Origin: Candidatus Bathyarchaeota archaeon
GTDB taxonomy: Archaea > Thermoproteota > Bathyarchaeia > 40CM-2-53-6 > RBG-13-38-9
Length of the DNA: 64,000 bases
Direction: 5' to 3'
Assembly (NCBI GenBank): GCA_963807605.1
Contig: CAWECG010000003.1
Location: 608,001 to 672,000, forward strand
This document shows, piece after piece, positions 47,591-50,741 of this stretch. The position numbers and the translations under genes were made by a program. The notes under the pieces are model-generated. The model was not told the origin of the DNA and did not search any database. It saw only the letters and a list, made by a program, of their open reading frames with translations. Each line of letters opens with the position of its first letter. Within the stretch, counting starts at the first letter, position 1.

Positions 47591-48505
47591 TTGTGTAGTT
47601 TGATCATTATGGGGTCCGGTCCGGCTGGCCTGACAGCAGCCGTCTACGCGGCTCGAGGCGCTATCCAGACCAGGGTGGTGGAAGGTACTAGTCCGGGCGG
47701 ACAGTTGATGTTAACCACCGATGTGGAGAATTACCCCGGTTTCCCTGCGCCGTTGAAGGGCCCTGACCTAATGGCTTTGATGAGAAGGCAGGTTGAGCGA
47801 TTTGAGGTAGAGTTCATATCGGGTGACGCAACTCGTGTCGACTTCGCGTCAGGATCACTGAAAGTCGAGGTAAACGGGATTACTTACGAGGCTGACTCCG
47901 TAATCGTGGCAACAGGCGCCACATCTAGATGGCTTGGGCTTGAGTCAGAACAGAGGTTGAGAGGAAAAGGAGTCTCCTCCTGTGCAACATGCGACGGCTA
48001 CTTCTTCAAGAACAAGGATGTTGTGGTCGTTGGTGGGGGTGACACTGCGTTAGAGGAGGCTATCTTCCTATCAAACATAGTGAGGAAGGTCACAGTCATC
48101 CACAGAAGGGATGAGTTGAGATGTGCGAAGATAATTCAGGAGACAGCCTTCAAGAATGATCGAATGGGCTTTCTATGGAACAGTGTAGTTGAGGAGATTC
48201 TGGGAAGCGCGAGAGTTCAAGGTGTTAGGGTCAAGGATCTCCGGACAGACCGAATTTACGATTACAAATGTGATGGAGTCTTCATAGCGATAGGACACAT
48301 TCCTAATACGGGGATCTTCAGAGGACAACTTGAACTCGATGAAGCAGGTTATGTAAAAACACAAAAAGGAACCGAAACCAGTCAAAAGGGAGTCTTCGCG
48401 GCAGGAGACGTTGTCGATAGAATCTACAGGCAGGCAGTCACAGCGGCTGGGTCTGGATGCCAAGCTGCACTAGATGCGATACGATACCTAAAGTCGGGGA
48501 CATAA
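47591..48505 (+). CDS. trxB: Thioredoxin-disulfide reductase
   Basis: GSGPAG, GGQL..TTDVENYPGF, CATCDG, GGGD.A.EEA, HRRD, AAGD, YRQA. Confidence 0.95.
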   Translation: MCSLIIMGSGPAGLTAAVYAARGAIQTRVVEGTSPGGQLMLTTDVENYPGFPAPLKGPDLMALMRRQVERFEVEFISGDATRVDFASGSLKVEVNGITYEADSVIVATGATSRWLGLESEQRLRGKGVSSCATCDGYFFKNKDVVVVGGGDTALEEAIFLSNIVRKVTVIHRRDELRCAKIIQETAFKNDRMGFLWNSVVEEILGSARVQGVRVKDLRTDRIYDYKCDGVFIAIGHIPNTGIFRGQLELDEAGYVKTQKGTETSQKGVFAAGDVVDRIYRQAVTAAGSGCQAALDAIRYLKSGT

Positions 48506-48533: not shown

Positions 48534-48710
48534 TCAATAAGGCCAGAAGGATCTAGGTGTGAAAGTGGCCACACCTATCTCTTGAGCATACCACGGCGAT
48601 CTCCAATAAAGTTGTGGTGGCAGAGATGAAATTACCGGGAACGGGAACATTGGCCAGAAGCACGAATACCAGAAGGGGGGATAGTTTGGGCGCGGAGCAT
48701 CCCAGTACAT
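48534..48710 (-). CDS. Small Pro/Trp/Tyr/Phe-rich low-complexity protein
   Basis: MYWDAPRPNYPPFWY...SFWPY; GGTGA Shine-Dalgarno 5 nt before ATG at 48710. Confidence 0.6.
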   Translation of the reverse strand: MYWDAPRPNYPPFWYSCFWPMFPFPVISSLPPQLYWRSPWYAQEIGVATFTPRSFWPY

Positions 48711-48817
48711 TAATCTCACCGATAGCTTCTGTAGTCCAACTTATATGTAAATTAATCTGTTACTTTTGGTAGCTATTTGCGCGAGCGCATTGCTAATTCG
48801 TTGATGGAGGTGAAAGC

Positions 48818-49168
48818 TTGAGTTATTATCCATATCCGTATCAGTATTGGCAACGTCTGTCCTTCTATCAGCCTTATCCCATATTGCCTTTCTATGATCC
48901 TCGATCAATGTTTCAGGCAATGACTCCGAACTATCAATCAATGTTCGGTCAGTATCCTCATCAGTATTATCAACAGCAAGGACAAAGTGATCCTCGATCA
49001 ATGTTTCAGGCAATGACTCCGATCAATCAATCAATGTTCGGTCAGTATCCTCATCAGTATTATCAACAGCAAGGACAAAGAGGACCGGGACGTGGAACCA
49101 ACCTGGTTGGCATTCCGGGGTTTGGATTGCCTCTTTGGTACACTTTACCGGCATTAACGGGGCATTGA
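48818..49168 (+). CDS. Tyr/Gln/Pro-rich protein with 31-aa tandem repeat (starts MSYYPY)
   Basis: GGAGGTGA Shine-Dalgarno before TTG; in-frame 93-bp duplication. Confidence 0.7.
   Translation: MSYYPYPYQYWQRLSFYQPYPILPFYDPRSMFQAMTPNYQSMFGQYPHQYYQQQGQSDPRSMFQAMTPINQSMFGQYPHQYYQQQGQRGPGRGTNLVGIPGFGLPLWYTLPALTGH
48895..49080 (+). repeat. Tandem 93-bp repeat, 2 copies
   Basis: 48895-48987 versus 48988-49080 differ at 2 nt (AACTAT/ATCAAT). Confidence 0.92.
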
Positions 49169-49273
49169 CGACATAGTATTTGCGAGAGCGCTTAGCTTCC
49201 TTATTTTACCTTCTGAATCACGATTCTCGAACGCGCACATGTATGAATTGGTTGACGCGGGCTTGTCCATAGA

Positions 49274-49444
49274 TCAATTTTTTTCGTTTCTTCTTATTAT
49301 TGCATGGATTGCTAGACCTATTACTGTAATGAGAATGCCCATTGCTGCGATAGACGCATTGAGATATAGCCCTCCGAACGCGAGCCATAGTATCCCCATC
49401 ACCAGAAACGCATTGCGGGCTTCTTTCTTATTTTCTTCTTTCAT
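49274..49444 (-). CDS. Small two-TM membrane protein (56 aa)
   Basis: Manual translation MKEENKKEARNAFLVMGILWLAFGGLYLNASIAAMGILITVIGLAIHAIIRRNEKN*; GGTGA upstream. Confidence 0.55.
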   Translation of the reverse strand: MKEENKKEARNAFLVMGILWLAFGGLYLNASIAAMGILITVIGLAIHAIIRRNEKN

Positions 49445-49664
49445 TATATCACCGGCTTGGCGGGCAGAACGCTCGCAGACCGATATGCGGGAGTATCTTA
49501 GTTTCTTAACATTCGTATTAGAATCTTGTAGTCTATTTGTGCGTAGCTGATTTTGCGGCTGAACCAGTACCGGCAGAGAATTGGAGAAACTTCCAGAGTA
49601 TTAGCCTGAAAACTTGGCCCTCATCATCGCAATTATGGCTCCGAGATGCCTATACTAGCGACGC

Positions 49665-49751
49665 CTATCGCTTTCTCACTTTCCAGATGCCTACGGCGAT
49701 TATCCCTGATGTAATCGCCAAGGCAGCTGCCAAGATTTTTTTATTCTTCAT
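49665..49751 (-). CDS. 28-aa single-TM microprotein
   Basis: Manual translation MKNKKILAAALAITSGIIAVGIWKVRKR*. Confidence 0.4.
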   Translation of the reverse strand: MKNKKILAAALAITSGIIAVGIWKVRKR

Positions 49752-50013
49752 ACGATTTCACAATATTATTTGACTGCAAATATTGCTAATAGGCATTGGT
49801 CAGTCACAAAGGTTACTTACTCCGATCGATTAGCCTTTTTCAAGCGTCATTAATGAAGACGCATAAGACATCCAACAACGTTAGATTATCTAGATTGGTG
49901 AAGTCACAGCGACAGAATGGCAAACAGCAGATCCCTTAAATCGCCGAGAAGACCACTCAACTTGAAGCTTCAAGCCAGATCTGGAAGTCTTGCTAGCGAG
50001 GAGGTGAGAATAG

Positions 50014-50403
50014 ATGTCTTACTATCCATACTACCCGATGGGATATCCGAATTATTATCAATGGCCCATGAGCCAGTATTCTCCCATGAGCCAGTACCCC
50101 ACTATGAGCGCATATTCCATGCCGAACCAATATACCATGCAAAATCAATACTACATGCCTAGCCCGTACTATGGTTACGGCCAACAACCAGGATACGGCT
50201 ATCCATATCCTTCATACGGTGGTCAAAGCTACGGATATGCTCCACAACCAACACCCTTCTACCTATACCAGAATCCTATGGGCTGCAGTCCCTTCGGATT
50301 GTCTGAACAGGCACCAAACCCCTACTACTACATGATGTCGATGGGACTCCCAATGGGTTTCAGCAATCCTTACAGACAATTCCCAATGCTGCCCTCCTAC
50401 TAG
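50014..50403 (+). CDS. Tyr/Pro/Gln/Met/Ser-rich prion-like protein (starts MSYYPY)
   Basis: GAGGAGGTGA Shine-Dalgarno before ATG; 29 Tyr in 129 aa, only 2 charged residues; 18-bp periodic repeats. Confidence 0.75.
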   Translation: MSYYPYYPMGYPNYYQWPMSQYSPMSQYPTMSAYSMPNQYTMQNQYYMPSPYYGYGQQPGYGYPYPSYGGQSYGYAPQPTPFYLYQNPMGCSPFGLSEQAPNPYYYMMSMGLPMGFSNPYRQFPMLPSY

Positions 50404-50648: not shown

Positions 50649-50741
50649 TGGCGGGCCCGGTGGGATTCGAACCCACGATCTCCGGCTCTCCTCCTCTCTG
50701 ACCGAAGGCCAGCATCTTAATCCTGACTAGACTACGGGCCC
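50649..50741 (-). tRNA. tRNA-Arg(TCG) with canonical 37/38 intron (50688-50701), CCA encoded
   Basis: GGGCCCGTAGTCTAG...CTGGC-CTTCGG[TCAGAGAGGAGGAG]A-GCCGG...TTCGAATCCCACCGGGCCCGCCA; CTTC/GAGG central BHB helix. Confidence 0.93.

Follow-up and report, generated by a model that had tools for sequence, protein, structure and literature searches.

Genes for small aromatic proteins form a conserved divergent pair, usually beside trxB, in one family of Bathyarchaeia

The window analyzed here is a 64,000-nucleotide stretch (G000:C3:608001-672000) of a 2.65-Mb genome, assembled in 5 contigs, from an uncultured sediment archaeon of the Bathyarchaeia. Between the thioredoxin reductase gene trxB and an intron-containing tRNA gene, the window holds three genes for small proteins rich in aromatic residues, named C, A, and B, and two hydrophobic open reading frames (ORFs) that lie between A and B. 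The features of this interval, in window coordinates, are as follows:

47591 to 48505, plus strand: trxB, thioredoxin reductase (Pfam Pyr_redox_2, 7.7e-54), a neighbor conserved with the small-protein locus
48534 to 48710, minus strand: gene C, a 58-amino-acid (aa) Trp/Phe/Tyr/Pro-rich protein, with an ATG start behind GGTGAG; supported by codon-position variation and omega (see below)
48749 to 48766, no strand given: AT-rich TATA-like element in the divergent intergenic region between C and A; a block conserved in relatives, putatively a promoter element
48806 to 48813, plus strand: ribosome-binding site of gene A, GGAGGTGA, read from the sequence
48818 to 49168, plus strand: gene A, a 116-aa Gln/Tyr/Pro-rich protein with a TTG start; homologues in the related genomes G001 and G002
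48895 to 49080, plus strand: 93-nt in-frame tandem duplication within gene A, two copies that are 98% identical
49274 to 49444, minus strand: 56-aa ORF with two hydrophobic spans, a putative locus member with weak matches elsewhere only
49665 to 49751, minus strand: 28-aa hydrophobic ORF, putative, taken from the ORF list; no family match
49889 to 49930, plus strand: conserved noncoding block about 85 to 125 nt upstream of gene B, near-invariant across four genera
50000 to 50007, plus strand: ribosome-binding site of gene B, GGAGGTGA; GGAGGTGAG is invariant in orthologues except the genus-3 type
50014 to 50403, plus strand: gene B, a 129-aa Tyr/Pro-rich protein with an ATG start; supported by orthologues, codon-position variation, and omega
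50652 to 50741, minus strand: intron-containing tRNA gene, Arg (UCG); Rfam tRNA, 54 bits, with stem assignment by Infernal

The pattern of substitution among relatives indicates that A, B, and C are genes of the translated type that are under purifying selection. In the codon alignments, the variable sites at codon positions 1, 2, and 3 number 56, 58, and 76 for B (78 columns), 26, 23, and 50 for C (56 columns), and 38, 34, and 64 for A (79 columns); an independent count on the DNA alignment of C gave 31, 29, and 55 of 61. Synonymous sites are mostly saturated (proportion of synonymous differences, pS, 0.6 to 0.9; of nonsynonymous differences, pN, 0.15 to 0.35), and the nonsynonymous-to-synonymous rate ratio (omega) was taken from pairs with unsaturated synonymous divergence. 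It ranges from 0.03 to 0.23 for C and mostly from 0.09 to 0.32 for B, with one distant B pair at 0.50. For A, a third-position excess is accompanied by saturated synonymous sites. Relatives retain the starts, the stops, and ribosome-binding sites of the GGTG type, and the opposite-strand frames are interrupted. An earlier note on this DNA, made from the letters alone, had argued that A and B are real genes, and held that a lack of homologues under purifying selection, or expression of the opposite-strand frames, would speak against this. Purifying selection acts on the homologues of all three genes. The opposite-strand frames are broken and are not the conserved ones, and these two objections therefore fall away.

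The contrary explanation, that these are chance ORFs in compositionally odd DNA or that the other strand is expressed, could draw on the absence of C from a database of 5.8 billion proteins and on the want of any family match. Against it stand the frame-specific third-position variation, the low omega, and the retention in many genomes of starts, stops, and ribosome-binding sites together with broken opposite-strand frames. Its probability is next to nil, and as far as sequence data can tell it is already refuted. A noncoding RNA at the position of C was likewise ruled out, by the period-3 variation and the lack of an Rfam match.

What the earlier note had read directly from the letters of these genes was confirmed. 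A and B begin with the same hexapeptide, MSYYPY, in differing codons (TTG AGT TAT TAT CCA TAT in A, ATG TCT TAC TAT CCA TAC in B), and GGAGGTGA lies 4 nt ahead of the A start and 6 nt ahead of the B start. The 129-aa protein has 29 Tyr residues with a single acidic and a single basic residue, and its hexapeptide repeats are encoded by 18-nt tandem repeats (50065 to 50159). The 58-aa Pro/Trp/Tyr/Phe-rich ORF, described as divergent, is gene C.

By profile comparison and database search, A, B, and C are three separate families, each its own and none of them described. Homology among them and a further family, D (introduced below), was rejected: hhalign found nothing for B with C, D with C, or D with B, and the alignment of A with B is confined to the N terminus, residues 1 to 7. 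None of A, B, C, and the two membrane ORFs scored above cut-off against Pfam or NCBIfam, a PDB sequence search gave only nonsignificant matches (the sole one for B being Pierce1, E = 0.13), and viral contigs contained no relatives of B or C. The DUF5320 profile (PF17253) has no match to A, B, or C at E values up to 0.1; its best match genome-wide, at 15.4 bits with a cut-off of 27, is at another locus. A scan of a collection of genome contigs with the single B sequence as query gave no match, and a B profile search retrieved 16 database proteins, all named hypothetical and all from Bathyarchaeia or metagenomes. The nearest look-alikes of B according to a protein language model are small hypothetical proteins of Bacillota with low scores (0.77 to 0.79), and the language-model atlas held nothing usable for C. 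No protein in the 5.8-billion-protein database has even three 5-residue words in common with C, so gene callers have missed this gene.

Each family has conserved features of its own. Orthologues of B share MSYYPYYP.GY..YYPW, PSPYYGY, one Glu within a central YEQA, and the C terminus PYRALPMLPSY. The conserved core of C is FPFPVI.SLPP.L.WR.PWYAQEIGV, and its identity among relatives is 58 to 74%, with TrxB of the same genomes at 54 to 76%. Family A is marked by MSY[YW]PY (MSYYPYPYQYW in the window), QSMF.QYPH.Y.QQQG, and a G/L/W-rich end; its homologues in G001 and G002 are 52 to 53% identical, stand at loci unrelated to this one, and lack the 93-nt duplication. The repeat copy number of B differs between close relatives, and these tandem copies indicate that proteins of the B and A types grow by in-frame repeat expansion. 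The notion of a Met-rich antioxidant sink tied to TrxB was ruled out, the Met-rich insert being limited to genus 1.

B starts with ATG or TTG, or in the genus-5 type with CTG or ACG; in every case GGAGGTGAG precedes the start. In the genus-5-type genes (L043:1501, L044:1797, L095, and L096), the CTG or ACG lies 4 nt behind GGAGGTGAG and the codons for SYYPYYP follow directly. The frame reaches its next Met some 20 codons further on, and public gene calls begin there (P0013). The CTG-start form recurs in metagenome loci, and this arrangement suggests that B of the genus-5 type uses near-cognate start codons.

The distribution of the families was determined in about 300 Bathyarchaeia genomes, which include 14 other genomes of the window's GTDB family and about 286 from other families. 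Orthologues of B are present in 9 of these 14 genomes and in 13 metagenome loci, and were not found in the genomes of other families. C is present in 10 of the 14 and in 16 metagenome loci; outside the family it has only two marginal matches (E values of 2e-4 and 1e-3). A was found in just 3 of 16 family genomes, namely, the window genome, G001, and G002.

The conserved unit is B together with C, a divergent pair of ancestral origin that in most cases has trxB as its neighbor. The divergent starts of B and C are separated by 206 to 339 nt in G008, G009, G012, and G014, and likewise in 13 of the 16 metagenome loci that a search with C alone had yielded. Among the remaining three loci, one does not extend far enough, and two have the G002 arrangement, with B 13.5 kb away. 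trxB is convergent with C, which lies just downstream, in the window, G002, G005, G011, G012, and four metagenome loci; in one more metagenome locus the two are about 1.1 kb apart. In G001, B comes directly after trxB. In the window genome, A and the two membrane ORFs sit as an insert between C and B. The cluster that the earlier note drew as one unit is thus replaced by the conserved C/B pair, to which A has been added in the window genome.

B and C are missing from two genera of the family, and exactly these two carry family D instead. Its proteins, of 83 to 92 aa, start with MSYYYP or MSYGFP, are more ordinary in their middle part, and end in an aromatic stretch; profile comparison shows no relation to B or C. 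The D genes lie directly downstream of trxB on the same strand, as follows:

L082:1331-1600 (G004), same strand as trxB: family D gene
L084:192-443 (G007), same strand as trxB: family D gene
L083:194-454 (G010), same strand as trxB: family D gene

All 8 genera of the family have an aromatic small-protein gene at or near trxB, or one that cannot be placed owing to contig ends. In 18 loci examined from other families, no D-like ORF stands beside trxB.

The noncoding sequence of the locus is also conserved. The 42-nt block at 49889 to 49930 (TCTAG.TTGGTGAAGT.ACAGCGACAGAATGGCAAACAG.AG) is near-invariant in four genera and occurs once in the genome, and it is probably a binding site for a regulatory protein next to the B promoter. 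The idea that the block holds a conserved ORF (MAN.R), read by itself or joined to B by a frameshift, was rejected because only the DNA of the block is conserved: the frame stops after 15 codons in G001 and reads ATG TAA in G012. A structured RNA in the B leader was also discarded, with RNAalifold giving −5.7 kcal/mol and hardly any covariation. On the other side of the locus, the TATA-like element of C reads TTTACATAT on the C strand; relatives have the block CTCATCTCGTATGTAAAAGTAAC at the same place, and the conserved element is TTTACATA. Loci of the genus-8 type (L041, L042, and L094) carry G+C-rich palindromes, CACCCCCCCTAGGGGG, between the divergent B and C genes that are absent from the window.

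A perfect GGAGGTGA precedes only 27 ORFs of at least 40 aa in the genome, and 17 of these 27 are no longer than 130 aa. From reading by eye, we take their products to include Hsp20-like, ferritin-like, AhpD-like, DsrE-like, and ubiquitin-like proteins and two identical ones of the YHS/TRASH type. The occurrence of such stress-type genes behind this site is suggestive only.

In the whole genome, A and B are the only ORFs that start with MSYYPY, and 8 ORFs start with [MVL]SYY, of which 6 encode Pro/Tyr-rich low-complexity proteins. The earlier note proposed MSYYPY as a targeting or nucleation motif; a functional N-terminal tag is a fair reading, since MSYY-type starts recur in families for which profile comparison finds no other relation. 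Three paralogous 121-aa ORFs rich in Pro, Gln, Tyr, and Val start with MSYY[CFL]VPRP (G000:C2:74312, C3:195801, and C4:135301, all on the minus strand; see also L085:1437-1802, minus strand); their three surroundings are unrelated to one another, and Pfam gave no match for them. A 108-aa protein (G000:C2:52717, plus strand; L086:1218-1544) starts with MSYYDPGYW, continues with (PYTQ)n in tandem, and ends in a zinc ribbon, for which the Pfam matches are weak and all under curated cut-offs (the best being Zn_ribbon_3, 3.6e-05). Four other small ORFs with 13 to 20% Tyr and many Pro and Trp residues lie on the minus strand (G000:C3:759402-759764, C3:111167-111328, C4:611869-612138, and C3:924935-925306); among these, one is Gly-rich and hydrophobic over its N-terminal half, and another contains a zinc ribbon.

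The two tiny membrane ORFs that the earlier note placed in the locus both exist, on the minus strand, but no conservation with the locus was seen. The matches of the 56-aa ORF in relatives are weak (E values of at least 0.002) and none lies at the same position, so that it has no syntenic counterpart; its match to DUF3784 is weak and under the cut-off. The 28-aa ORF has no family match in the Pfam and NCBIfam scans, and relatives of it were not searched for. The adjoining tRNA gene was assigned to Arg, as the note had it, by Infernal, which places an anticodon stem CUGGC/GCCGG and a loop beginning CUUC with U33 in place. ARAGORN calls the same gene (50649 to 50741) Glu (UUC), which looks like a one-base offset induced by the intron. 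The surrounding genes are housekeeping genes that encode a KaiC-like ATPase, a PrsW protease, a dCTP deaminase, a phosphoribosyltransferase (PRTase), an IF-2B family protein, a tRNA endonuclease, and HisRS.

The composition of B and C is that of disordered proteins, and structure prediction gave no confident fold for either. The AlphaFold2 model of B computed with family alignments has a mean predicted local distance difference test score (pLDDT) of 47.6 and contains one 5-residue helix, no strand, and otherwise no secondary structure; that of C has a pLDDT of 52.6 and a marginal helix at residues 32 to 44. Prediction of a B and C complex scored 0.00, which is no verdict and was counted neither for nor against binding. 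No export signal or membrane span was seen in B by a hydropathy test, without a dedicated signal-peptide predictor (maximum 19-residue hydropathy of about 0), and the corresponding maxima of C (0.6 to 1.0) and A (0.6 to 1.4) likewise indicate neither an export signal nor an anchor. B also has no lipobox, its N terminus being the conserved MSYYPYYP. The earlier note had seen no evident signal peptides or folded domains in the small proteins, and the hydropathy of all three and the models of B and C agree with this.

The FUS/Sup35-like look, for which the earlier note called these proteins prion-like, turned out to be peculiar to the B protein of this genome. Window B contains 29 Tyr and 23 Pro residues, one Lys or Arg, one Asp or Glu, four [GS]Y[GS] motifs, and 15% Gln plus Asn. 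Its orthologues have 20 to 29% Tyr, 15 to 20% Pro, and 0 to 2 charges of each sign, yet Gln plus Asn amounts to 6 to 15% (6 to 12% in most) and [GS]Y[GS] motifs number 1 to 4, mostly 1 or 2; several such motifs are thus not kept family-wide. With so little Gln and Asn and so few of these motifs, the label fits the B family only loosely. Proline is spread over the whole chain of B, in which proline-free stretches of 9 to 17 residues occur. Compared with shuffled sequences, aromatic residues stand next to Pro more often than expected in 9 of 9 B sequences (z from 0.4 to 3.6) and next to each other less often (z from −0.2 to −2.3). The aromatic residues are also spaced a little more evenly than after shuffling. 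The overall trend is the same throughout but weak, and these sequences are related.

The reading that we favor, with a probability of roughly 0.4, is that A, B, and C are cytoplasmic, disordered, self-associating proteins that carry aromatic "stickers" and conserved end motifs. The dispersed Tyr residues, often beside Pro, would act as multivalent stickers on extended proline-rich chains. B would associate with itself and also with C, which is rich in Trp and Phe, to give a scaffold or a dense phase of protein, and its conserved termini may serve as docking motifs. There is a precedent in the archaeal candidate prion domains of Zajkowski et al., where those positive in Congo-red and Sup35 assays had Pro/Gln runs with Tyr or Phe close by (bioRxiv 10.1101/2020.07.20.212902). 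The MSYY-type N terminus would mark otherwise unrelated small proteins (A, B, and D of the sister genera) for a common partner or assembly. The strong ribosome-binding sites and the dedicated conserved upstream block suggest that expression may be high and regulated, possibly linked to stress. Several points weigh against such sticker proteins. The even spacing of aromatic residues does not reach significance in any B sequence taken singly, and the orthologues are not independent of one another. The degree of conservation of C equals that of TrxB, which fits a specific interaction with folding on binding better than a loose phase, and the discrete motifs kept along B equally fit a stoichiometric partner. 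The linkage to trxB is left unexplained by self-association and may be mere synteny. A more specific version seems unlikely: here B and C would together scaffold an aromatic-rich protein phase or a membraneless compartment peculiar to the lineage, and the SYYPYYP-type N-terminal tag, which at least three or four otherwise unrelated small-protein families have in common (A, B, D, and perhaps E), would be the recruitment signal.

The same conserved motifs may instead belong to adaptors or "staples" that do not assemble by themselves, with B and C becoming ordered only along a folded partner or a polymer lattice. The partner could be an enzyme such as TrxB, a filament, or an envelope layer, bound through the end motifs and the PWYAQEIGV core. 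This is the main rival reading, possible if doubtful. The motifs are discrete and strongly conserved, C matches TrxB in conservation, and a marginal helix is predicted in C. The unrelated family D occupies the place beside trxB exactly where B and C are missing, in line with the recurrence of an aromatic small-protein gene there across the family, and the nonsignificant PDB match of B, Pierce1, is an extended protein that is threaded into a lattice. However, the partner is still only hypothetical, the composition of B, a quarter of which is Tyr, is extreme, and relatives differ freely in the repeat number of B, as would be unusual at a fixed 1:1 interface. With no conserved Cys in B or C, a connection to TrxB through thiol-redox chemistry is unlikely. 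An extracellular matrix, an envelope layer, or a coat, made of released and possibly cross-linked Tyr-rich proteins, is improbable. Cross-linked coats are built by Tyr-rich small proteins in Bacillus spores, and the language-model look-alikes of B, with their low scores, are from Bacillota. The coat or cyst role proposed by the earlier note nevertheless lacks any export signal: signal peptide, membrane span, and lipobox are all unseen, no transporter, peroxidase, laccase, or other cross-linking enzyme is found among the neighbors, and oxidative dityrosine chemistry would be ill suited to an anaerobic sediment lineage.

A true amyloid or prion-like switch, in which B would form self-templating cross-beta structure as Sup35 and FUS do, can be given little credence. 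Such a switch could draw on the GYG/SYG motifs and the Gln and Asn content of window B, on its proline-free stretches, and on archaeal candidate prion domains that were amyloid-positive in Congo-red and Sup35 assays, which show Pro/Gln runs with nearby Tyr or Phe (bioRxiv 10.1101/2020.07.20.212902). Proline along the full chain of B argues against it, as do the absence of strands from the predicted structure and the orthologues, most of which drop to 6 to 12% Gln plus Asn and one [GS]Y[GS] motif. The chance that the genes encode precursors of the kind known for ribosomally synthesized and posttranslationally modified peptides, with Tyr and Trp cross-linked by a tailoring enzyme, is very slim. 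The products are small and aromatic rich and have a conserved "leader-like" N-terminal motif, but no gene for a radical-SAM enzyme, P450, YcaO, protease-transporter, or the like lies within about 10 kb, where the neighbors are housekeeping genes, and conservation extends over the whole 90 to 130 aa rather than following a leader-plus-core pattern.

Aromatic-rich low-complexity sequences are known mainly as appendages on large eukaryotic proteins. Here they are whole small proteins, and selection within a single archaeal family maintains them as a fixed pair of genes with a probable control element of its own. They stand alone and are small enough to synthesize, which suits them as a simple natural test case of how lone Tyr/Pro sticker sequences behave and of whether archaea use such proteins to organize the cytoplasm. 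If B and C were indeed a scaffold pair, they would represent a stand-alone and genetically compact condensate system outside eukaryotes and bacteria. Regardless of mechanism, at least three unannotated protein families are added, one of which (C) was wholly missed by gene callers, and the Gln/Asn-type prion-like label appears not to describe the B family.

Among known systems, the Bacillus subtilis spore coat proteins CotC, CotU, and CotG resemble B in their small size and very high Tyr content. These Bacillus proteins contain much Lys and Asp as well and are assembled onto the spore surface, whereas B carries a single basic and a single acidic residue. No sequence similarity to them was found, and we know of no spores in this archaeon. 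Amelogenin and the MSYPGYPP-type N-terminal tails of annexins A7 and A11 are self-associating sequences rich in Pro, Gln, Met, and Tyr. Their resemblance to B, which is a lead only, lies in the residue alphabet, the PY-rich runs, and the form of a stand-alone or terminal disordered region; they are eukaryotic and unrelated in sequence and cellular setting. FUS, the N-terminal domain of Sup35, and the archaeal candidate prion domains (bioRxiv 10.1101/2020.07.20.212902) share with B a near-uncharged, Tyr-rich, and disordered chain that grows by repeats, and window B also has GYG/SYG motifs and PQ.Y-type repeats; the positives among the archaeal candidates had Pro/Gln with Tyr or Phe nearby. Unlike these domains, B is of low complexity throughout, with no folded domain attached, its family combines high Pro with low Gln and Asn, GYG/SYG is not conserved, and fixed motifs are found at both termini; nor is B homologous to them in sequence. 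The closest concept is the prion-like or low-complexity domain, from which B, judged by its sequence, differs in being stand-alone, rich in Pro, poor in Gln and Asn, and bounded by fixed motifs.

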